Source: an uncultured Gammaproteobacteria bacterium (GTDB taxonomy: Bacteria; Patescibacteriota; Patescibacteriia; Magasanikbacterales; GWA2-37-8). Taken from it: a DNA stretch of 64,000 bases. A program made the position numbers and the translations under genes. The notes under the pieces were generated by a model. It did no database searches. It saw only the letters and a program-made list of their open reading frames with translations, and was not told the DNA's origin. Shown one piece after another: positions 3,826-55,909 of the stretch. The stretch covers positions 64,445 through 128,444 of the forward strand of contig CAYHBZ010000001.1 of assembly GCA_964355175.1 (NCBI GenBank), in the 5' to 3' direction. Position 1 is the first letter of the stretch. Each line of letters begins with the position of its first letter.

Positions 3826-4377
3826 ATGAAAAATTTTAGTCGACCAAGCAGCGGCGGCAGTAGAGATTTCGGCAAGAAAAGCTTCCCTGGCCGCGGTTTT
3901 GGTGGCGGTGGTGGCAGAAGCTTTGGTGGTGACCGTGGCGGTGATCGCGGCGGAGACCGACCAATGTTTTCGGCTACTTGCAGCAAATGTGGCAAAGACG
4001 CTCAGCTTCCTTTCAGACCAAGCGGTGACCGTCCGGTTTTCTGCAGCAACTGTTTTGAAACTGAAAAGAACTCCGCTCCAAGCTTTGGTGGCGCTTCCAG
4101 CTTTTCTCGCCCACCTCGCAGTTTCGACCGACCTAGCTTTGGCGACCGTCGTCCGACTCCTATGGCCGCTCCAGCTGTAAATTTGGACCAATTCAAAGCT
4201 CAATTTGAAGCCTTGAACACCAAGCTTGATCGTTTGATCCGCGCAATTGCTCCAAACGAAGCGGTTGTGTCTGAAGAAAAAGCTCCAAAAGCAAGTTTGG
4301 GTAGCAAAGCTAAAGCCGCTCCAGTAGAAGCTCCAGCAAAACCAGCTAAAAAAGCTGCTGCAAAAAAGAAGAAATAA
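3826..4377 (+). CDS. Gly/Arg-rich (RGG-repeat) protein with CxxC-x17-CxxC zinc ribbon and Lys/Ala-rich basic C-terminal tail
   Basis: GGDRGGDRGGDRP tandem repeats; CSKCG...PFRP...FCSNCF zinc-ribbon motif; C-terminal KAKAAPVEAPAKPAKKAAAKKKK; locally GC-rich codons; the antisense ORF is judged an artefact. Confidence 0.55.
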   Translation: MKNFSRPSSGGSRDFGKKSFPGRGFGGGGGRSFGGDRGGDRGGDRPMFSATCSKCGKDAQLPFRPSGDRPVFCSNCFETEKNSAPSFGGASSFSRPPRSFDRPSFGDRRPTPMAAPAVNLDQFKAQFEALNTKLDRLIRAIAPNEAVVSEEKAPKASLGSKAKAAPVEAPAKPAKKAAAKKKK

Positions 4378-32605: not shown

Positions 32606-32857
32606 ATGAATGTTACAAAAAAACACGATTTTATACCTAAAGAAAAAAGAAACAAAATAGTAAATGAGATAATTACTTACTATAAAACAAAAATGGATCA
32701 AGAAATCGGCGTAGTGGTCGCTGAAGATATCCTAGATTTTTTCTTAGAAGCTATCGGAAATGATATTTATAATAAAGCGATTAGTGATTCAAAAAATACT
32801 ATTAAAAATGGTTTTGAGATTATTGAAGTCGATTTAGATTTATTACTAAATAAATGA
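32606..32857 (+). CDS. hypothetical small protein
   Basis: 83-aa ORF in a block with A-ending codon bias; no recognisable motif. Confidence 0.3.
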   Translation: MNVTKKHDFIPKEKRNKIVNEIITYYKTKMDQEIGVVVAEDILDFFLEAIGNDIYNKAISDSKNTIKNGFEIIEVDLDLLLNK

Positions 32858-33243
32858 TTAAATTTAATAAAAAATATTTCATAGCCGCAATAATATTATT
32901 TATAATAGAAATTTTTATCGCCCTATTTATACATGATAGAATAGTTAGGCCTTACATAGGGGATATGCTGGCGGTAATCTTAATTTTCTGTTTTATAAAA
33001 AGCTTTATTAATATTAGATCTATGTATATAGCAATTTCTACTTTGGTCTTTGCTTACTTTATAGAACTACTGCAATATTTTAACTTACTTGATTATATTG
33101 ATTTAAAAGGCAATAAAGTTGCCGCGATACTGCTAGGTGGGTCATTTGACTGGATTGATTTGGTTAATTATACTTTAGGAATAGTAATTGTTATTACATT
33201 TGAAAAAATGATTTTAAAACTAACTAAAAATAAGCTCTCTTAA
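32854..33243 (+). CDS. hypothetical membrane protein (3-4 TM)
   Basis: hydrophobic helices; start overlaps the upstream stop (ATGA). Confidence 0.35.
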   Translation: MIKFNKKYFIAAIILFIIEIFIALFIHDRIVRPYIGDMLAVILIFCFIKSFINIRSMYIAISTLVFAYFIELLQYFNLLDYIDLKGNKVAAILLGGSFDWIDLVNYTLGIVIVITFEKMILKLTKNKLS

Positions 33244-33249
33244 TTAAAT

Positions 33250-33732
33250 ATGGAAAATCAAAACGAAAAATTTATCTTAAAATGTATTGAGTTAGCACAA
33301 AAAGGTTTAGAAAAAGGAGAGATGCCTTTTGCTAGCCTTATTACAAAAGGGGACGAAATTATAGTCGAATCTATAAATGGAGCCGCCGGAAGAATTTCTG
33401 ACCACGCTGAAATTCTAGTCCTAGACAGGGCTCATAAAATATTAGGAACGTCTGATTTATCAGGTTATACATTATATACAATTTGCGAACCGTGCCCTAT
33501 GTGCTCATTTATGATCCGTGAATATAAAATAAAGAAAGTGGTTTTTTCACTATTCTCACTATTTATGGGCGGATATTCAAAATGGAACATTCTCCAAGAT
33601 CAAGAAATAGCTCAATTTAAAGATTTCTTTGGCCAACCACCGGAAGTCGTGGGTGGAATTTTTGAAGACAGAGCAAAAAAGATATTTGCCCAGACGCCGC
33701 TTTGGATGTTTGGTAGTGACTTAAAAAAATAA
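33250..33732 (+). CDS. CDA-fold nucleoside/nucleotide (tRNA-adenosine/guanine-type) deaminase
   Basis: zinc-binding HAE ... PCPMC motifs. Confidence 0.7.
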   Translation: MENQNEKFILKCIELAQKGLEKGEMPFASLITKGDEIIVESINGAAGRISDHAEILVLDRAHKILGTSDLSGYTLYTICEPCPMCSFMIREYKIKKVVFSLFSLFMGGYSKWNILQDQEIAQFKDFFGQPPEVVGGIFEDRAKKIFAQTPLWMFGSDLKK

Positions 33733-33762
33733 AAGGTTATTTGTCCCTAGCAACCTATTAGA

Positions 33763-33796
33763 AATAACGACCATAGCACAGTCGTTATTTTTATTT
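33763..33796 (+). terminator. rho-independent terminator after the deaminase gene
   Basis: aaataacgac-catagcaca-gtcgttattt plus T-run. Confidence 0.55.
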
Positions 33797-33820: not shown

Positions 33821-33849
33821 TTGACGCCCCCCCCCTCTAATGATATAAT
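33821..33849 (+). promoter_or_regulatory. consensus promoter TTGACG-17-TATAAT whose spacer contains a C9 homopolymer (candidate slipped-strand phase-variation switch)
   Basis: exact hexamers; spacer = CCCCCCCCCTCTAATGA (17 nt); the only long G/C homopolymer seen in the window; 37 nt upstream of ORF 33886. Confidence 0.5.
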
Positions 33850-33885
33850 TTTATCAAGTTTAAATTAGACTTTTAATAACATTAT

Positions 33886-34728
33886 ATGCATCCAGGTGAA
33901 GCGGGAAAAAATGAAATTAGTTCAATTGGCAGCGCCTATTACACTTTCAGTAAATTTAAAGAAAGAGCAAAAAGCAAGGATATGGTCGGGCTGAAGGCTA
34001 ATTTACAAGATGTCAAATCATCACAAAAATTCGTTGAAAAAAATTTACCCGATATTCCAAAAGAAGCACGTGAAAATAAAAATGGGATCTACAGTCCGGC
34101 CCACATGCTTAACAACGCTGTTTCTTACATGGCACAAACAATTGAATCTGGTGATCAGTCCGATTTAGGAAAGGCGTCAATTGCAGCAGATCAGGCTGAA
34201 AGACTAGCTGGTTATGGAATGAAACTAAAAGAAGTTAATAACAGTCTTAAAACAACTGTGCTCACAGGATCACACACTCGAGAAATTAATCGTACAAATG
34301 TAATCGATATACCGGTCAATTGGAAAGAATCCGAAGCTGGTAAAAAATTTTTAAAAGGTATTACCGATTTTATTATAGCAAGAAATAAAGGAGAGGTAAT
34401 AACAGACAAAGATATTCAAATGTTTACTGATTTAGGAGATTTAATATTGACCGCATACAAGGATTTAAAGGTTGGTAAGGATCAAGCTCAAACTTATCCT
34501 ATGGCGCGAGAAATGATCCTCATCAATCTAGCTTTATTGAAAGCTGAAGCAAAAAAACATATAGGCAAACGAATGCCGCAAACAGAGAAAGATTTTGTAA
34601 CAGTTCAACTTATTCGGGGATTATACCATCACGATACGGCTACTGAACAAGAACAAAAAATGGGGCACCGTGAAAGTTTTGATAAAGGTCCAACTATTAT
34701 AGATAGACCACCCGGTCTACAAACTTAA
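33886..34728 (+). CDS. hypothetical protein, 280 aa, no signal peptide, no recognisable domain
   Basis: long ORF with A-ending codon bias; own promoter and terminator. Confidence 0.45.
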   Translation: MHPGEAGKNEISSIGSAYYTFSKFKERAKSKDMVGLKANLQDVKSSQKFVEKNLPDIPKEARENKNGIYSPAHMLNNAVSYMAQTIESGDQSDLGKASIAADQAERLAGYGMKLKEVNNSLKTTVLTGSHTREINRTNVIDIPVNWKESEAGKKFLKGITDFIIARNKGEVITDKDIQMFTDLGDLILTAYKDLKVGKDQAQTYPMAREMILINLALLKAEAKKHIGKRMPQTEKDFVTVQLIRGLYHHDTATEQEQKMGHRESFDKGPTIIDRPPGLQT

Positions 34729-34835
34729 GATTATCAAATAGACATAAGAAGTTTAAAAAAATAAAAAATAGCCCTCAAAAAGAGCTATTTTTTAGCCCTA
34801 GCCAGCCATTTTCTTCTCTGCTATACTAAACATAT

Positions 34836-34970
34836 ATGTCCAAATGCAACACCTGCACCCTAGTTCTGGAGAATGAAGAGGATGCTTGCGTTTGCAACAG
34901 CAGTATTTGTCATGGTTGCTGTAGCTGCCAGGACGGCTGTGGTTGTGGATGTTTAGCCGCCCACATTTAG
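34836..34970 (+). CDS. unlisted sORF: 44-aa Cys-rich metallothionein-like peptide (MSKCNTCTLVLENEEDACVCNSSICHGCCSCQDGCGCGCLAAHI)
   Basis: 11 Cys in 44 aa, in CxC/CC/CGC clusters; ATG..TAG complete; TATACT -10-like box upstream; the overlapping 62-aa antisense ORF (34798..34986) is also Cys-rich, so strand choice is not settled. Confidence 0.4.
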   Translation: MSKCNTCTLVLENEEDACVCNSSICHGCCSCQDGCGCGCLAAHI

Positions 34971-35013: not shown

Positions 35014-37992
35014 ATGTCAAATTTGAATTCCAATCAAAAAATCGCGGTGGAATATAACGACGGCCCCTTGCTGATAGTAGCGGGTGCTGGTACCGGCAAG
35101 ACCACTGTGATCACCCAAAAAATCGCCTATCTGATCCAAAATAAACTCGCTCGCGCTGAGGAGATTTTGGCGGTGACTTTTACCGAAAAAGCTACTACTG
35201 AAATGGAGGATAGAGTACAAGAACTTTTATCTTTTTCCGGCTTTGATGTCCTTACTTGTACTTTTCACGGACTGTGCCAGCAGATCTTGGAAAGCAACGC
35301 GCTCGATATCGGCATCCCAAATAATTTTAAACTTCTCAACGAAACGGAAAGTTGGCTTCTCGTGCGCCAGAATTTGGATAAATTTAAATTGGATTATTAT
35401 CGACCACTGGGTAATCCGACCAAATTTATCCACGCGATGATTAAACATTTCCAAAAATGCAAAGACGAATTGGTCACACCGCAAAATTATCTGGAATATG
35501 CCCAAAGTTTGAACCTAGATTCGGATTTGGAACCAAGTAAAAAAAAGAAAAAGAAGACCGAGGATAGCGGAGAAGATACCGCACTAGAAATAAAAAGAAT
35601 AAACGAACTGGCTGAGGCATATCATACATACAATCAATTATTGCTTGATTCTAGTTCGTTGGACTTTGCGGATCTTATTTTTTATACCGTCAAACTTTTC
35701 CAAGAACGTCCAAATGTTTTAAAATTTTATCAAAAAAGATTTAAATATATTTTGGTAGACGAATTCCAGGATACCAATTATTCTCAATACCAACTTATTA
35801 AACTACTAACTCAAAACAGCGACACCAAACTCACGGTAGTGGGGGACGACGATCAAAGTATCTATAAATTCCGCGGCGCTTCCGTGTCCAATATTTTGCA
35901 ATTTAAAGATGATTTTGTAAAATCCAAAGAAGTGGTGCTAAGCGAAAATTATCGCTCCGGACAAAAAATTCTGGACTTGGCATATAATTTTATTCAACTC
36001 AATAATCCGGATCGCCTAGAAGATAGACTAAAAATAAATAAAAAACTATCGGCTCAAACCAAGAAAGTCGGGGATTACGATTTATTAATGGGACAAAATC
36101 CTAGTCATGAAGCGGATTTACTATGTAAAAAAATTCTTGGTCTAAAAGAACAGGATAAAAATCTTAAATGGAACGACTTTGCGATACTTTGTCGCGCCAA
36201 TAGTTTTGCAGATCAGTTTATCCCTTACCTCAATCAGCTAAATATTCCTTATGAATTTGCCTCTCCCAGCGGTTTATTTCGCCAAAAGGTAGTCTTGGAC
36301 AGTTTGGCATTCTTGCGTTTGTGCGACAACTACCACGAGTCCAGCGCGGTTTACCGCATTCTCAACAGTCCAATTTTTTCGATGTACTACAGCGATCTTT
36401 CTCAACTTTTGCTATATAGTCGCCGCCAGACAGTTTCGCTCTTTGAATCCATCAAAGTAGCTTCACGCGGAATTGTGAAACTAAGCAAACACGGACAAGA
36501 AGTTATTGAGAAACTCATAAACATCGTGGGTGAATGCACTCAGCTGAGCAAACAAGAGCCGGCCGGTCGTGTGCTCTATAAATTTTGGGAAAAATCAGGT
36601 TATCTGAAACTGCTCAGCGATAATGTAGAAAAATACCAAATTGATATTTTGTATTTGCAGGCCTTGTTTGAAAAGATAGACGAATTCCAAAAAAATAATA
36701 GCGATACCGGCGTGCGATCTTGGCTGACATATTTTGAAACTTTGCTTGAATCAGGTGATGACGGGGAAGATTTTTCTCAAGATACCAGAGGAGACGCTGT
36801 CAAAATTATGAGCATTCACCGATCCAAAGGTTTGGAATTTGAATATGTCTTTATTCCAAATTTTGTAGACCAGAGATTTCCATCTACCAACCGCTCTACC
36901 GCTATTGATCTGCCCGATGCTCTGGTACGCGAAGCGGCCTTACCAAGCGGTGACGCCCATACTCAAGAAGAGCGTCGTTTGCTATATGTAGCCATCACCC
37001 GCGCCAAACAAGGTGTATATTTTACAGCAGCCAAAAATTATGGCGGTGCGCGTGATAAAAAACTTTCTAAATTTATCCTCGAACTAGAAAGTACCAACCA
37101 AACCGCTTTTAGCCGAGAAATAATTAGCAGTGGACCAATTATTGATCTGGAACAAAAATCTAATGAGGAGGTAGCCGAAACTTTTGAACTGGAAATTCCA
37201 AAAGAATTTTCCTTTTCACAATTACAATCTTTTGATAAATGTCCTTGGCAGTATCGTTTTCAATTTATTCTCAAAGTACCAACTTTTGGCAAAGGAGTGT
37301 TTAGTTTTGGTAAAACCATGCATGGTACTTTGCAAAAATTTTACCAGCAAGTGATTGAATTAAATTCCGCCAAACAAAATTCTTTGTTTACTGCCGCTGC
37401 GCCAAAATTAGGCGAAGAAATAAAAGTGCCGTCACTGGATACTTTAAAAGAAATTTATAGAGAAGCTTGGCAAGATAGCTGGTTTCAATCTGCTGGCCAA
37501 AAACAAGAATATAAGAAAAAGGGGATTGAGATTTTGGAAAACTTTTATGCTCGCGGCGAAAAAGAAGGTTGGACTGTGCCTATCACCGTGGAAAAAGGTT
37601 TCCGTTTCAGATTAAAAGATCACACTATCAAAGGCCAAATTGATCGTATTGATAAAACTATCGACGGTAAATTAGCCATCATTGATTACAAAACCGGCCG
37701 ACCAAAAGACAAACTCGCTGCCGAAGATAAAAGTCAGCTCTTGATTTACCAAATCGCAGCTGAGAGCGTGATTGAACTGCGTAACCTCGGCGAAGTATCT
37801 GAACTGCGTTATTATTATTTAGATAATAATAGTGTTCAGGCTTTCAAAGGTACCGATGAAGAAACTGAAAAAGAAAAAATAAAAATTGATGAAATAATTA
37901 CCGAGATAAAAAAGAAAAATTTTACACCAAAACCAAATAAGGAGACTTGCCAGTACTGTGACTTCCGTGATATCTGTGATTTTCGTGTATGA
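35014..37992 (+). CDS. UvrD/PcrA-type SF1 helicase fused to a C-terminal RecB/Cas4-like PD-(D/E)xK nuclease with a 4-Cys cluster
   Basis: Walker A AGAGTGKT; helicase motifs (VDEFQDTN, TVVGDDDQSIYKFRGA, MSIHRSKGLEFEYVF, VAITRAK); nuclease motif IIDYKTG; C-terminal CQYCDFRDICD. Confidence 0.8.
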   Translation: MSNLNSNQKIAVEYNDGPLLIVAGAGTGKTTVITQKIAYLIQNKLARAEEILAVTFTEKATTEMEDRVQELLSFSGFDVLTCTFHGLCQQILESNALDIGIPNNFKLLNETESWLLVRQNLDKFKLDYYRPLGNPTKFIHAMIKHFQKCKDELVTPQNYLEYAQSLNLDSDLEPSKKKKKKTEDSGEDTALEIKRINELAEAYHTYNQLLLDSSSLDFADLIFYTVKLFQERPNVLKFYQKRFKYILVDEFQDTNYSQYQLIKLLTQNSDTKLTVVGDDDQSIYKFRGASVSNILQFKDDFVKSKEVVLSENYRSGQKILDLAYNFIQLNNPDRLEDRLKINKKLSAQTKKVGDYDLLMGQNPSHEADLLCKKILGLKEQDKNLKWNDFAILCRANSFADQFIPYLNQLNIPYEFASPSGLFRQKVVLDSLAFLRLCDNYHESSAVYRILNSPIFSMYYSDLSQLLLYSRRQTVSLFESIKVASRGIVKLSKHGQEVIEKLINIVGECTQLSKQEPAGRVLYKFWEKSGYLKLLSDNVEKYQIDILYLQALFEKIDEFQKNNSDTGVRSWLTYFETLLESGDDGEDFSQDTRGDAVKIMSIHRSKGLEFEYVFIPNFVDQRFPSTNRSTAIDLPDALVREAALPSGDAHTQEERRLLYVAITRAKQGVYFTAAKNYGGARDKKLSKFILELESTNQTAFSREIISSGPIIDLEQKSNEEVAETFELEIPKEFSFSQLQSFDKCPWQYRFQFILKVPTFGKGVFSFGKTMHGTLQKFYQQVIELNSAKQNSLFTAAAPKLGEEIKVPSLDTLKEIYREAWQDSWFQSAGQKQEYKKKGIEILENFYARGEKEGWTVPITVEKGFRFRLKDHTIKGQIDRIDKTIDGKLAIIDYKTGRPKDKLAAEDKSQLLIYQIAAESVIELRNLGEVSELRYYYLDNNSVQAFKGTDEETEKEKIKIDEIITEIKKKNFTPKPNKETCQYCDFRDICDFRV

Positions 37993-50725: not shown

Positions 50726-51838
50726 ATGTTAACTTGGGTGGAGGTAAACAAACAGGCAATAGAGTATAATCTGAAACAATTCAAAAAACTAATTGGTGCA
50801 AAAATTCTTTTGATGCCGGTTATTAAGTCCAATGCCTACGGGCATGGACTTGTTGAAGTTGCTAAAATCTGTCAACAGAGTAGGGAAGTAGGCAGGCTCT
50901 GCGTAATAAATTTAGATGAAGCAATAGAATTAATAAAAAATGGCATCAAAAAACCAATAATGATTCTGAGTTTTTATGAATTTGATACTGAAAAAATAAA
51001 GATTGCGATAAAAAACAAAACCGTCTTCCCAATTTACAGAGAGGACCAAATAAAATTCTTACAAGAAAGCGCTAAAAAATTAAATTTGAAGGTTCGAGTG
51101 CATCTAAAAATAGATATAGGCACTAGCCGGTTGGGTGTTTTTCCAAAAGACGCCGTGATTTTTGCCAAAAAAATAACCTCTTCAAAAAATTTAGTACTTG
51201 AGGGACTGTGGAGTCATTTTGCTTCCAGCGAAACCGACAGGGGACTTACCATAAAACAAAGACAGATCTTTGAGAAGGTAGTGGGGGAGCTGGAACAAAA
51301 TAATATTTTTGTACCACTAAAACACACAGCCTGTTCGGCGGCAACCATCCTTCATCACGACGCTCATTTCAACGCGATTCGTTTAGGGCTTAGCACCTAT
51401 GGACTATATCCGGATGAAAAAAGTAAAAAAATTATCACACTAAAACCAGCTCTATCCTTGAATACAAAAATTATCCAATTAAAAACAGTACCTCCTAATA
51501 CTAAAATAAGTTACGGTGGCACCTTTGTTACCAAACAAAATACCACCGTCGCCACTTTGCCGATAGGCTACTGGGATGGCATGGATAGAAGAATGTCCAA
51601 TAATGGGGAAGTGCTTATAAATAGCCAAAAATGCCCAATTATAGGCCGAGTTTGTATGAATTTAACAATGGTAGATGCTTCTAAAGTAAAAAATATTAAG
51701 GTGTGGCAGACAGCTACGGTGATTGGACGACAAGGAAAATCCATGATAACCGCTGATGATATTGCCAAAAATATCGGTACTATTAATTACGAAGTGGTGG
51801 ATAGAATAAACCCATTAATCAAACGCATTGTAAAATAA
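50726..51838 (+). CDS. alr: alanine racemase
   Basis: PLP-lysine motif VIKSNAYGHG; C-terminal beta domain with catalytic Tyr region. Confidence 0.8.
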   Translation: MLTWVEVNKQAIEYNLKQFKKLIGAKILLMPVIKSNAYGHGLVEVAKICQQSREVGRLCVINLDEAIELIKNGIKKPIMILSFYEFDTEKIKIAIKNKTVFPIYREDQIKFLQESAKKLNLKVRVHLKIDIGTSRLGVFPKDAVIFAKKITSSKNLVLEGLWSHFASSETDRGLTIKQRQIFEKVVGELEQNNIFVPLKHTACSAATILHHDAHFNAIRLGLSTYGLYPDEKSKKIITLKPALSLNTKIIQLKTVPPNTKISYGGTFVTKQNTTVATLPIGYWDGMDRRMSNNGEVLINSQKCPIIGRVCMNLTMVDASKVKNIKVWQTATVIGRQGKSMITADDIAKNIGTINYEVVDRINPLIKRIVK

Positions 51839-51840
51839 CT

Positions 51841-52818
51841 ATGCGCTATTTTCATTCCAATAAAAACTTCAACCAATACAAACCGAGTGTATCTTTTTGG
51901 GATAGATTTAAAAAAAAACATCCTCAGAGGGGACTGAACACGATAAAAACACCAAATGTATTATCCAATCCTTTCAAAAGGGAACAGCCAAAACCCAAAA
52001 ACTACAAAAAGATATTTGTTACCGCTTTTATTTTGTTAATATTCTTAGGCTGGATTACTCTCATGCTGACCCTGCCATATTTTAAAATAAACAACATCGT
52101 AATAAATGGAACAAAAATTAGCAAATCTGCGGAAGTAAATGATTATGTTCGTTATGGTGATTATTTTAAAGATGGCTTGGTGTCACGAAGAAATTATTTT
52201 CTTTTCCAGGATAAAACCGTAGCCCAAAAAATACAAAATAAATTTTTGTATGAAAAAGTAGAAATAAAAAAGAATTTTCCCAACACTGTCAATATAATTA
52301 TCAGCGAAAAACCGGCGAGTATTATCTATGATAATAATGGAATAATATATTTACTTGATAAAGACGGCAAAATTATCAAAAAAACAAAGCTCTCCTATAA
52401 TAATACAAACCCAGCGCAACCGGCTTTAAGTCCTACCACCACACCGATAATTTCCTTGAATCAGGCCGCTTCTAGGGCTTATGAAGAAACTATGGCAGAA
52501 TATGGTAACTTTCCGGTAATTATCGATCATAAGACGATTTCAACCAACGATGATAAGCTTTTATCCGCAAAATTAATAGAGACTGCCCAACTATGGCACA
52601 AATATTTAAAAGAACAGGCGATAGGGGAAATAAAATTTTTTAGCACCGATGAAACAGACTTTAATTTGAAAATTACTTTAAATAAACCCTGGTATATACT
52701 AATAAACACTCAAAGTGACACGAACTCCCAAATGCGCAACCTAAAAATGATTTTATCAAGCAGTAATCCGACCAGCTATATAGATCTACGATTTGGAGAT
52801 CGGGTATACTGGAAATAA
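51841..52818 (+). CDS. FtsQ/DivIB-like cell-division protein (POTRA-containing)
   Basis: N-terminal cytoplasmic tail plus single TM; POTRA-like INNIVINGTKISKSAEV. Confidence 0.45.
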   Translation: MRYFHSNKNFNQYKPSVSFWDRFKKKHPQRGLNTIKTPNVLSNPFKREQPKPKNYKKIFVTAFILLIFLGWITLMLTLPYFKINNIVINGTKISKSAEVNDYVRYGDYFKDGLVSRRNYFLFQDKTVAQKIQNKFLYEKVEIKKNFPNTVNIIISEKPASIIYDNNGIIYLLDKDGKIIKKTKLSYNNTNPAQPALSPTTTPIISLNQAASRAYEETMAEYGNFPVIIDHKTISTNDDKLLSAKLIETAQLWHKYLKEQAIGEIKFFSTDETDFNLKITLNKPWYILINTQSDTNSQMRNLKMILSSSNPTSYIDLRFGDRVYWK

Positions 52819-52840
52819 AAAAGTCGCGCAACCTCATAAT

Positions 52841-52872
52841 TAAAATCTCTGAAATTTAATCAGAGATTTTTT
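52841..52872 (+). terminator. rho-independent terminator
   Basis: aaaatctctga-aatttaa-tcagagatttt. Confidence 0.6.
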
Positions 52873-52945
52873 ATTTAAAAATTTTAAAGGGAGACGGTAG
52901 AGGAGTGGCCGAAACGGGTGTGGATAAGGCCGCTTTACAGCTGGG

Positions 52946-53488
52946 TTGCTTTGTTATATAATTGAGTATAATAACTCTTACACTCAGTTATATGTACTAA
53001 TTATGCGCTTAAATAAGACAAAATCAATTAGCTTGGCCTTTAGCACCCCTTTTGATCTTTTAATGAAAAAACTATATTCAGAAAAAGAAATGTCGACTCC
53101 GGAAATTTCTGATTATATTTTTAAACAAGTAAAAATTTTTATAACTCCAAGATCAATTCAAAGAGAAATAAAAAAACTTGGATTAATCAGAGGTCTGAGT
53201 GATGCTTTTAAACTGGCTATAAAGAAAGGTAGAAAATCCTACGAGCACCTCAAAAAACCCATTAAGTCTTCCCTACTGCGCCACGGAATCACTTTGAAGA
53301 CCAGATTTGAGGTTTTCCAAAGAGACAGCTCACGCTGTGTTATTTGCGGCAAAACTGCTCAAGATGATATACTAGTAGTCGATCATATCATTCCGGTGGT
53401 CAAGGGAGGGACAAACAACATAAAAAACCTCAGAACATTATGCCGAGAGTGTAACCACGGCAAGATGCTTTTAAATGAACATATATGA
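52946..53488 (+). CDS. HNH endonuclease with N-terminal HTH-like region
   Basis: CVICGKT...VDHIIPVVKGGTNNIKNLRTLCRECNHGK = HNH with Cys4 zinc site; alternative start ATG 53003; stop overlaps the next gene's start (ATGA). Confidence 0.7.
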   Translation: MLCYIIEYNNSYTQLYVLIMRLNKTKSISLAFSTPFDLLMKKLYSEKEMSTPEISDYIFKQVKIFITPRSIQREIKKLGLIRGLSDAFKLAIKKGRKSYEHLKKPIKSSLLRHGITLKTRFEVFQRDSSRCVICGKTAQDDILVVDHIIPVVKGGTNNIKNLRTLCRECNHGKMLLNEHI

Positions 53489-54438
53489 CCTCCAACCAAT
53501 TCCCACTTCCCTACTTTGATGATTTTATTTTAAATCTTAAAGCCAATAATTTTTCGGAAGAAACTGCGTATAATTATGAACGCGATTTAAAAACTTTTGA
53601 ATCTTTTTTAAGTAACGACATAAAAAAATCTTTTGACCAAATAAATAAAACTGATATTTTACGTTTTAAGGCTTATCTTGGCTCATCTGAACGCAAAACT
53701 GCTGAAGACAAAAAACCAGAAAAAAAGCTTAATAGCTACTCTATAAACCGCATACTTTCTTCAATGCGCTCTTATTTGAAATTCATGGAAGACATGGACC
53801 ATAAATCCCCAATATCCTCTAATGCAATAAAACTGCTTAAAAACGAGAAAAAAAGCGCGCGCGTACCGGAATTTGAACAACTTATCAAACTCATTGAAGC
53901 ACCGACAAAATATGAAGAAAAAATCCAAGTAGCATTGCGTAACCGGGCGCTACTGGAAACTTTATTCGCTACCGGCATGCGTATCTCCGAACTTTTATCT
54001 CTAAAAGTTGAGCAGATCGACCAAACTGGTAAAATATATATCATGGGTAAAGGTAAAAAACAAAGATTTGTCTATCTGACACCCCGAGCTCTTGTCCATT
54101 TAAAAAGTTATTTAGCCAAAAGAAACAGCACTTCAGATATGTTGTTTGTTCCTTACCGCGGCCGCAATAATAATGAAAAAAATAAAAAACTTTCGACTAA
54201 TTATTTACAATACAAAATCAAACAATACCGTCAGTTATTGGATATAAATTTGCCAATCAGCGCCCATACTTTACGCCACAGCTTTGCCACTTTTTTGGCA
54301 GAAAAAGGTGCCAATCCAGCCGCTATTCAAATCCTTTTGGGCCACGAATCACTTGATACCACCACTAGATATGTACATGCTTCAGATAGATATGCGGAGA
54401 AGACGCATCACGAATTTCATCCACTCTTTGATAAATAA
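53485..54438 (+). CDS. Xer-like tyrosine recombinase (XerC/XerD family)
   Basis: N-terminal SAM-like domain (ETAYNYERDLKTFESFL); catalytic R...HTLRHSFAT...LLGHESLDTTTRYVH with the Tyr. Confidence 0.75.
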   Translation: MTSNQFPLPYFDDFILNLKANNFSEETAYNYERDLKTFESFLSNDIKKSFDQINKTDILRFKAYLGSSERKTAEDKKPEKKLNSYSINRILSSMRSYLKFMEDMDHKSPISSNAIKLLKNEKKSARVPEFEQLIKLIEAPTKYEEKIQVALRNRALLETLFATGMRISELLSLKVEQIDQTGKIYIMGKGKKQRFVYLTPRALVHLKSYLAKRNSTSDMLFVPYRGRNNNEKNKKLSTNYLQYKIKQYRQLLDINLPISAHTLRHSFATFLAEKGANPAAIQILLGHESLDTTTRYVHASDRYAEKTHHEFHPLFDK

Positions 54439-54466
54439 TTTTTTCTACTCGCTTGAAAATAAAAAA

Positions 54467-54497
54467 ATATCCCCCAACTTAATCGGGGGATATTTTT
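54467..54497 (+). terminator. rho-independent terminator after the recombinase
   Basis: atatccccc-aacttaatc-gggggatat plus T-run. Confidence 0.65.
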
Positions 54498-54539
54498 AAT
54501 TTCGGTTGTCATCAGACCTCACTTCACTAATGCTGACTT

Positions 54540-54855
54540 CAAAAAATAAACATTAGGGAACGGTGAGGTCTGCGCGCAGCAAACTCCGCCCGCCCTCGGA
54601 AGGACCTTGTTGGTCATCCCACAACTTCCAGCACCGAAAGTGCCAGCTGGGCCTCTTGGGCACGAGCAAAAGTCACCTGCAGGCACAGGTGGCGCTCGTT
54701 GCGACGATGAGGCACACGCCCAGCGCAATTCGGACAGCCGGAATCGCGAGGAGGCCGAGCTGAAGTCAGGGGAGCATTGGAACGAAAAGGACGTGCTTTG
54801 TCTGCCATTGTGTTTCCTTCGGTAAACGGATACAGTGCGAGAAACAACCTTCAAA
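54540..54855 (-). ncRNA. GC-rich structured RNA candidate of unknown class (~310 nt), probably minus strand
   Basis: GC-rich and stop-poor on both strands between the terminators of the recombinase and ddl; minus-strand promoter TTGACT-17-TACTAT at 54856-54884; minus-strand 3' end has a UCUGCGCGCAGA hairpin then a U-run; no tRNA-like domain found by eye. Confidence 0.3.
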
Positions 54856-54884
54856 ATAGTATCTCAAATATGGCTAAAAGTCAA

Positions 54885-54914
54885 GAAAACAGCCCTACTA
54901 TAGGCTGTTTTCTT
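54885..54914. terminator. terminator for the minus-strand ddl unit (bidirectional hairpin)
   Basis: gaaaacagcc-ctactata-ggctgttttc. Confidence 0.55.
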
Positions 54915-54928
54915 CATAATTTATATTT

Positions 54929-55909
54929 TTATAATGCCGCCGAAATTATCAAATCAAGCATTTTTGGAAACGATATCCCCGCTTTTCCAGCCGCTTCCGG
55001 AAGTAGACTAGTTCCAGTCATCCCAGGAATAGTGTTGGTTTCTATTATATATACTCGCCCATCATCCCCAAGAAAAAAATCACTGCGACTCATCCCCCGA
55101 CAGCCCAGCGCTTTGTGAGCGGTAACTGCTAATTCTTGCATCGTTTTATTCACATCTTCTGAAAAATCCGCCGGACAAATATGTTTGGATCCACCTGGCA
55201 AATATTTGGATTTATAATCATAAAATTTCCCCACTTGCGGCAAAATATGAGTTGGCGGCAAAGCAAACGCCTCACCTTTTTTCTCGAGCACTCCACAAGT
55301 AGCTTCTTGGCCTTTGATAAATTTCTGCGCCAATAGCCAAGGAAATTTTTTAATTGTTTTGTTCACTGTCTGTTTGAGATCATCTTCGGTTTTTATTATA
55401 CTTACCCCTACTGCCGATCCTTGATCTACCGGTTTCACCACACACGGATAACCGACACTAGTATTGATAGCCGCCAAAACTTCTTTCTGGCTGTTTTTCC
55501 AATTTTTGGCAGTGATATCAATAAAAGCCGGATGCGGCAAATGCCAAGAATAATATATCAGACCAGCATACACTTTATTCATACACAGCGCGCTACTTAG
55601 AGTATTTGGACCGGTATATTTGATACCCAGCGCTTCAAATATCCCTTGCACCGTACCGTCCTCCCCTGGCGTACCGTGCAAAGCAATAAATACTACATCA
55701 AATAATTTTCTGTCTTTATTTACAAAATCTACCAATCTTTTTTTATTTTTTATTTTCAAAACAAAATGATTATCTTGAGTCATTTCCACCAAACTCGGCG
55801 CATATTTTTTACGATCCAAATTATCAAAAACAGCTTGACCCGTGACCAGAGAAACTTCTCTTTCCGAAGATGACCCTCCGTACAATACCGCCACTTTTAA
55901 TTTCTTCAT
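54929..55909 (-). CDS. ddl: D-alanine--D-alanine ligase
   Basis: ATP-grasp; MKKLKVAVLYGGSSSEREVSL N-terminus; full-length Ddl homology. Confidence 0.85.
   Translation of the reverse strand: MKKLKVAVLYGGSSSEREVSLVTGQAVFDNLDRKKYAPSLVEMTQDNHFVLKIKNKKRLVDFVNKDRKLFDVVFIALHGTPGEDGTVQGIFEALGIKYTGPNTLSSALCMNKVYAGLIYYSWHLPHPAFIDITAKNWKNSQKEVLAAINTSVGYPCVVKPVDQGSAVGVSIIKTEDDLKQTVNKTIKKFPWLLAQKFIKGQEATCGVLEKKGEAFALPPTHILPQVGKFYDYKSKYLPGGSKHICPADFSEDVNKTMQELAVTAHKALGCRGMSRSDFFLGDDGRVYIIETNTIPGMTGTSLLPEAAGKAGISFPKMLDLIISAAL

Follow-up and report, generated by a model that had tools for sequence, protein, structure and literature searches.

Locus, promoter and transcription unit

Analysis of a 64-kb stretch of DNA (the window; contig CAYHBZ010000001.1) from a bacterium of Candidatus Magasanikiibacteriota, a lineage of the Candidate Phyla Radiation (CPR; Patescibacteria), revealed a predicted promoter that carries nine consecutive cytosines (C9) in its spacer and lies upstream of a 280-codon gene, here named X280. 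The promoter and the gene are on the + strand, and relatives with the same promoter architecture carry C7, C8 or C10 at the same position, which makes the tract a candidate regulator of X280 expression by its length. The original prediction had placed the hexamers TTGACG and TATAAT exactly 17 nt apart with nine consecutive C between them, and direct reading of the region (TATAATA TTGACG CCCCCCCCC TCTAATGA TATAAT TTTATC) confirmed this arrangement. The -35 hexamer TTGACG (33821-33826) matches five of the six positions of TTGACA and is abutted by the C9 homopolymer (33827-33835), the variable part of the spacer, which is followed by an 8-nt remainder, TCTAATGA (33836-33843), and by the -10 hexamer TATAAT (33844-33849). 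The TG at 33841-33842 completes an extended -10 element, TGATATAAT (33841-33849), of which the original prediction made no mention. A consensus scan returned this site as the best promoter-like site between 31 and 38 kb of the window, with 11 of 12 matches and the TG present. The C9 tract is thus placed inside the spacer of what is predicted to be a functional promoter, so that its length sets the promoter geometry.

The tract is exceptional in its surroundings. It is the only homopolymer of at least 6 G or C in the whole window (39% GC), as the original prediction had stated of long G/C runs, while a first-order Markov model leads to an expectation of about 12 G/C runs of at least 6 nt and 0.08 C-runs of at least 9 nt per window. 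Because one such run was observed against about 12 expected, G/C homopolymers appear to be strongly avoided in the window, and C9 is an outlier. With nine residues it also lies above the length of about 7 nt or more that is taken to mark a slippable mononucleotide G/C tract. No match was returned when the whole window was scanned for tRNAs and against Rfam, so the intergenic region is not a known RNA gene.

The spacing of the two hexamers was compared with that of other promoters of the host. In a near-consensus scan of the window, 12 of the 15 strongest promoter matches listed had a 17-nt spacer, as did all seven other + strand matches with at least 11 of 12 consensus positions, and the strong matches that were checked adjoin starts of open reading frames (ORFs), just upstream of them. 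Because strong promoters almost always have 17-nt spacers, the host RNA polymerase appears to use both the -35 element and the spacing; with so strict a preference, gain or loss of one C should matter. Such strictness is a precondition for a spacer-length switch to work.

The promoter is flanked by signals that delimit a separate transcription unit. The operon upstream encodes ATP synthase epsilon, a 2-hydroxyacid dehydrogenase, DUF2164 and DUF2809 proteins and, as its last gene, a cytidine/dCMP-type deaminase (33250-33732). It ends in a predicted intrinsic terminator, a + strand hairpin followed by a U-run (33759-33793; free energy -12.4 kcal/mol, z -6.5, with 0 of 200 shuffled sequences folding as well), which would insulate the C9 promoter from upstream read-through. 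From the putative transcription start, a 5' leader of about 30 nt is predicted (33856-33885, + strand), AU-rich, unstructured (z +1.0 compared with shuffled sequences) and free of a Shine-Dalgarno sequence. The X280 gene follows (33886-34728, + strand), and its ATG at 33886, preceded by an in-frame TAA, opens a start of ATG-CAT-CCA that is conserved together with the full-length protein. The unit is closed by a hairpin that resembles a terminator and, with A- and T-runs on its flanks, is bidirectional (34762-34794, + strand; free energy -10.3, z -3.5). The C9 promoter is accordingly predicted from the sequence to drive a single-gene, terminator-bounded unit.

The absence of a Shine-Dalgarno sequence was considered as a sign of a pseudogene and rejected, since such a sequence is present in one of the 61 window ORFs and missing from the other 60. 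In many window genes a TATAAT lies about 10-20 nt from the start codon, which suggests that leaderless or short-leader mRNAs are widespread in the host genome. An alternative start with a short ORF at 33911 was likewise rejected, as the conserved AATGA found there corresponds to Asn-Glu codons of the main frame. The suggestion that X280 sits in a compositionally distinct island did not hold, its GC content being 36.5% compared with 39% for the window; the local dip in GC is caused by the DUF2164 and DUF2809 genes (32606-33243), which have only 25% GC.

Conservation and length variation of the tract

The promoter was compared across lineages in the DNA around members of the X280 protein family, with tract lengths taken from consensus assemblies. 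Homologous promoters with a C-tract were found in three other lineages, whose proteins are 41-46% identical to X280. In the window the order is TTGACG-C9-TCTAATGA-TATAAT, with a 17-nt spacer. In L022 (NCBI GCA_036170335.1; protein P0009, 45% identity) it is TTGACA-C8-TGCGATGT-TATAAT, with a 16-nt spacer; in L029 (P0030, 46% identity) it is TTGACA-C8-TGCAGTGC-TATAAT, also with 16 nt; and in L030 (P0013, about 41% identity) it is TTGACG-C10-TCTGATGT-TATAAT, with 18 nt. The four lineages share one layout, namely TTGACR, a run of C, 8 nt ending in TGn, TATAAT, a leader of 32-36 nt, and ATG. The -35 hexamer is TTGACG or TTGACA in every tract-bearing promoter, the remainder of the spacer always has 8 nt and always ends in TGn, and TATAAT is invariant among the orthologous promoters. 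Within this frame the sequence has diverged, with 3-6 of 8 identical positions in the spacer remainder and 20-25 of 36 in the leader (33856-33885 in the window). The number of C's is the sole source of change in spacer length, and the lengths from C7 to C10 correspond to spacers of 15-18 nt.

The C-run is uninterrupted in all four lineages, and in about 160 kb of related loci no G/C run of at least 7 nt was found besides the homologous promoter tracts. Over-representation against the background, together with an uninterrupted run across this divergence, is the pattern by which a tract retained by selection may be recognised. Comparison of orthologous promoters had been set beforehand as a check on the prediction, and it found the tract kept at the same position in the three other lineages, with C7, C8 or C10. 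The refuting outcome named in advance, an invariant C9 together with orthologues that retain the gene without the tract, did not occur. Exact and gapped promoter-pattern scans of JGI metagenome contigs, GTDB genome contigs and IMG/VR gave 0 matches, and a protein-based locus search of metagenome contigs gave 0 confirmed loci.

Variation of the tract within a lineage was observed in the sister lineage that includes L022. A full-length protein of this lineage (P0029) is encoded on contigs from four sequencing runs, SRR25490545, SRR25490519, SRR25490529 and SRR25490521 (contigs L025-L028). These contigs have 0 mismatches over pairwise overlaps of 1.46-2.68 kb, and their sole difference is the tract, which is C8 in L025 and L027 (SRR25490545 and SRR25490529) and C7 in L026 and L028 (SRR25490519 and SRR25490521). 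The same contigs contain 9-15 A/T homopolymers of 6-7 nt, none of which varies between them, and this speaks against a generic artefact of homopolymer sequencing. L022 itself is 0.2% divergent from these contigs and carries C8. Such variation of a tract amid identical flanking DNA is what a slippage locus is expected to look like in sequence comparisons.

The X280 family and the mobility of the cassette

The original prediction had described the gene at 33886-34728 as a hypothetical without known domains and with its own terminator, which agrees with the closing hairpin at 34762-34794 and with the database searches. X280 had no match in Pfam, PHROG, NCBIfam or PADLOC, and a sequence-profile search against PDB returned nothing significant. 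An AlphaFold model built on a 26-sequence alignment was confident (predicted local distance difference test score, pLDDT, 92; predicted template modelling score, pTM, 0.90) and showed a helical protein in which residues 112-137 form a long beta-hairpin. In Foldseek searches of PDB (with both models) and of BFVD, no structure matched X280 at E<0.2. The protein is hydrophilic and basic, with a grand average of hydropathy of -0.61 and an isoelectric point of 9.1, and the hydropathy profile revealed no hydrophobic N-terminus or membrane segment (the highest 19-residue Kyte-Doolittle value was 0.71, and the mean over the N-terminal 25 residues was -0.58). By these sequence properties X280 is predicted to be a soluble orphan protein.

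HMMER was run exhaustively against 1.8 billion representatives and identified only 26 members of the X280 family, nearly all of them stand-alone proteins of about 280 amino acids. In the 1137-amino-acid protein P0008, the X280 domain is fused to a long N-terminal extension rich in lysine and glutamate, which is probably a coiled-coil. Most of the aligned family members end in the C-terminal sequence I-I-x-Q-P-x-x-L-R-T.

The gene is patchily distributed. In a sister species (L006), whose helicase is 93% identical, X280 is absent directly upstream of the helicase gene; the two sequences become homologous only from about 34787 of the window, just past the X280 terminator, and the L006 DNA upstream of that point is unlike anything in the window. 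The genomic context also differs among carriers. The cassette follows RNase J in L022 with L025-L028, in L029 and in L030, and the deaminase in the window, while in more distant genomes the neighbours of X280-family genes are a transposase fragment, a nucleotidyltransferase or tRNA genes. Two carriers show apparent coding lesions: L022, a metagenome-assembled genome (MAG) from NCBI, has an in-frame TAA at codon 12 (3950-4001) that is absent from the near-identical Logan contigs, and L030 has a frameshift near codon 65 (433-640) on a contig of 2.4x coverage. Patchy presence, differing contexts and apparent lesions together indicate that X280 is a movable and dispensable accessory gene. Of the earlier proposal of an accessory or surface-interaction factor, the accessory part is thus borne out by distribution and context, whereas hydropathy and the lack of domain matches speak against a location at the surface.

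Several further features of the surroundings were recorded. In L030, RNase J and the poly-C promoter are separated by an inserted segment of about 100-150 nt (205-300). This segment contains the inverted repeat TGTCATTCCCGTGAAAACGGGAAT ... GCGGGAATGACA, is missing from the other lineages and looks like a small repeat or an element resembling a miniature inverted-repeat transposable element. Downstream of X280 in the window lies a gene for a UvrD/PD-(D/E)XK helicase-nuclease, with 93% protein identity to a MAG from Lac Pavin and about 65% to other Magasanikbacteria MAGs; it is from these relatives that the source was assigned to Candidatus Magasanikiibacteriota. A run of A8 and an (A8G)2 repeat (35539-35557) within the helicase gene encode KKKKKK; the window has 16 A/T runs of at least 8 nt, this A8 included, so that A/T runs are common, unlike G/C runs.

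Directly upstream of the helicase gene is a small cysteine-rich ORF of 44-45 amino acids, MSKCNTCTLVLENEEDACVCNSSICHGCCSCQDGCGCGCLAAHI (34799-34970, + strand), which occurs in several Magasanikbacteria (L006, 213-344; L007, 7817-7951; L008, 7813-7947; L010, 1-105). The 10 cysteines that align with the orthologues are conserved, and the nucleotide identity between the window and L006 is about 99% in this ORF, although the helicase is just 93% identical in protein. No Pfam or PHROG match was found for this ORF, which from its sequence probably encodes a small metal-binding protein. Its mRNA is probably leaderless, because the ATG lies only 8 nt past an extended -10 element, TGcTATACT (34819-34827). 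On a larger scale, the cumulative GC skew reaches its maximum at about 51 kb and drops steeply thereafter (about 51000-55000), and gene orientation turns from + to - at about 54.5-54.9 kb, which makes the genes convergent, a pattern that would fit a replication terminus inside the window.

Candidate volume control and known systems

The reading that we favour, with a probability of roughly 0.6, is that C9 acts as a slipped-strand "volume control" tract of the porA/opc type, which sets the level of X280 expression. Slipped-strand mispairing during replication would add or remove single C's, and with the fixed 8-nt remainder the distance between the -35 and -10 hexamers would become 15 nt with C7, 16 nt with C8, 17 nt with C9 and 18 nt with C10. 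With C9 the spacing would be the favoured 17 nt and transcription presumably at its maximum, C8 and C10 would give less, and C7 may give little beyond what the TGn extended -10 element can sustain alone. The expected outcome would be a heritable and reversible volume control on X280 from which the population may benefit. A dial rather than an ON/OFF switch is proposed because the conserved TGn extended -10 element could buffer changes in the spacer. Of the features that define a contingency promoter, the locus shows four at the level of sequence, namely the length of the tract, its place in the spacer, polymorphism among strains and persistence against the genome background.

Several observations weigh against this reading. 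C9 is shared by the window and the assemblies SRR24858484, ERZ4201065 and ERR3856789, four sequences with 100% identity to one another over as much as 8.9 kb. This reproduction of C9 in independent datasets led to the rejection of an assembly artefact as its origin. The comparison has low power to detect variation, given that the assemblies are clonal and that ERZ4201065 and ERR3856789 are possibly one sample; the constant C9 may reflect either a stable tract or an optimal 17-nt state that is the selected majority. Heterogeneity of C-length among strains, as foreseen by the original prediction, appeared in the sister lineage (C7 compared with C8) and did not appear in the four assemblies of the window's own lineage. 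The C10 state rests on the single L030 contig, with its 2.4x coverage, and tracts of C7-C10 are at the short end of those with high slippage rates. A perfect -10 hexamer with TGn could also make the promoter largely independent of the -35 element and so blunt any effect of the spacer.

Conservation of the tract is also limited. No tract is present in P0004, at 52% identity the closest orthologue. It retains the ATG-CAT-CCA start and a leader that can still be recognised; the -35 and tract region has been lost, and the preceding gene stops 50 nt short of the ATG. More distant members (about 35% identity) have an ordinary promoter or none that is visible, for example TTGACA-17-TACAAT without a homopolymer in L023. 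Within the X280 family the tract is thus confined to a single subclade.

The explanation that competes best, although we consider it unlikely, accepts the tract as a real length-polymorphic hotspot but regards the promoter as running on TGnTATAAT, so that tract length would have almost no effect and the variation would be tolerated noise. In E. coli and Firmicutes the -35 element can be dispensable for extended -10 promoters, TGn and a perfect TATAAT are conserved in every lineage, and some lineages seem to have remained at C8 and C7, all of which this explanation would accommodate. It is less easily reconciled with the -35 hexamer, which is conserved in the four lineages while the flanks diverge, or with the strict 17-nt spacing of strong promoters, which implies that the -35 element and the spacing are used. 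Moreover, a C-run without function should have decayed by substitution at 41-46% protein identity, yet it is uninterrupted everywhere.

Somewhat less probable again is that the poly-C run is itself a functional DNA element, either a regulator site or a rigid spacer, and that its lengths are rare indels fixed between lineages. The presence of the tract and its position abutting the -35 hexamer are conserved across deep divergence, and C9 is invariant in the window lineage, as would be expected of such an element. Rare fixation is at odds with the four sister-lineage samples, where the tract indel is the sole difference in up to 2.7 kb and, for this reason, points to a local mutation rate far above the background. 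No partner regulator gene is conserved beside the cassette, and a sequence-specific site is not expected to tolerate four lengths. The least credible explanation attributes the length differences to homopolymer sequencing or assembly artefacts, with C9 arising by chance or neutrally: homopolymers are error-prone, L030 has low coverage and the short Logan contigs suggest the same, but C8 and C7 were each recovered twice in independent runs with no other difference and with constant A/T runs, C8 recurs in the L022 MAG, which differs by single-nucleotide polymorphisms, and in a different species (L029), C9 recurs in four assemblies, and the 0.08 C-runs of at least 9 nt expected per window would be far fewer inside the spacer of any of the dozen or so strong promoters.

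Volume control by tract length, if it operates at this promoter, would have consequences for how CPR bacteria are viewed. Members of the CPR are uncultured and have tiny genomes that encode few regulators, and attachment to other cells is their presumed way of life. A terminator-bounded poly-C cassette, present in several Magasanikiibacteriota species in differing contexts and encoding a protein with an unmatched predicted fold, might be the first contingency locus recognised in the CPR, a proposal that we put forward tentatively and at somewhat less than even odds. A conserved stochastic dial of this kind would show that CPR bacteria also use contingency loci, and that episymbiont-like members hedge stochastically over a factor under fluctuating selection, for example in host or phage interaction. 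The X280 family would then be flagged as probably under fluctuating selection and as a key unknown of CPR biology. The case is more than routine in that the tract is conserved across species, polymorphic, and predicted to control an orphan family whose predicted fold has no match.

Promoter-spacer homopolymer switches are textbook examples of phase variation in host-adapted pathogens such as Neisseria, Bordetella, Haemophilus, Mycoplasma and Campylobacter. No report of homopolymer or promoter phase variation in CPR/Patescibacteria was found in the searchable literature. The only CPR case of slippage-type hypervariation found there is a hypervariable repeat gene of a Gracilibacterium, in which a 9-mer repeat array encoding PTD repeats lies in the coding sequence (PMC6851277); unlike C9, it is coding and involves no promoter homopolymer.

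The closest parallel is porA of Neisseria meningitidis, where a poly-G tract lies within the -35/-10 spacer and expression is high with 11 G, 2-fold lower with 10 G and 13-fold lower with 9 G (PMC3639595). Both promoters have a G/C homopolymer (about 9-11 nt in porA) in a sigma-70 spacer, and in both its length varies among isolates. In porA, gain or loss of a single nucleotide shifts the -35/-10 spacing, with graded expression as the result. They differ in that the tract here is poly-C on the coding strand, abuts the -35 hexamer and is combined with an extended -10 element. The setting is also different: porA encodes an outer-membrane antigen of a host-adapted pathogen, whereas X280 is predicted to be a soluble orphan protein of an environmental CPR bacterium. 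In the poly-cytidine promoter of opc, tract length sets the level of transcription, as reported by Sarkari et al. (1994; cited in PMC5084427). The N. meningitidis opc promoter, and that of fetA, thus resemble the present one in having a poly-C tract within the promoter, although opc encodes a surface adhesin and the genes and promoters are evolutionarily unrelated. The opc tract is also longer, with about 10-15 C.

Other simple-sequence repeats in promoter spacers, namely the C-stretch of Bordetella pertussis fim2/fim3, the (TA)n repeat of Haemophilus influenzae hifA/hifB and the poly-A of Mycoplasma hyorhinis vlp, alter the distance between promoter elements and switch transcription. These systems differ from the C9 promoter in the type of repeat, its position and the dependence on an activator (BvgA for fim), and each controls a surface structure in a host-associated bacterium. 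The literature on this group includes van Ham (1993) and a survey of homopolymers in Bordetella (PMC1891110). The class of mechanism is thus already well known, and it is the phylum that would be new for such a locus.

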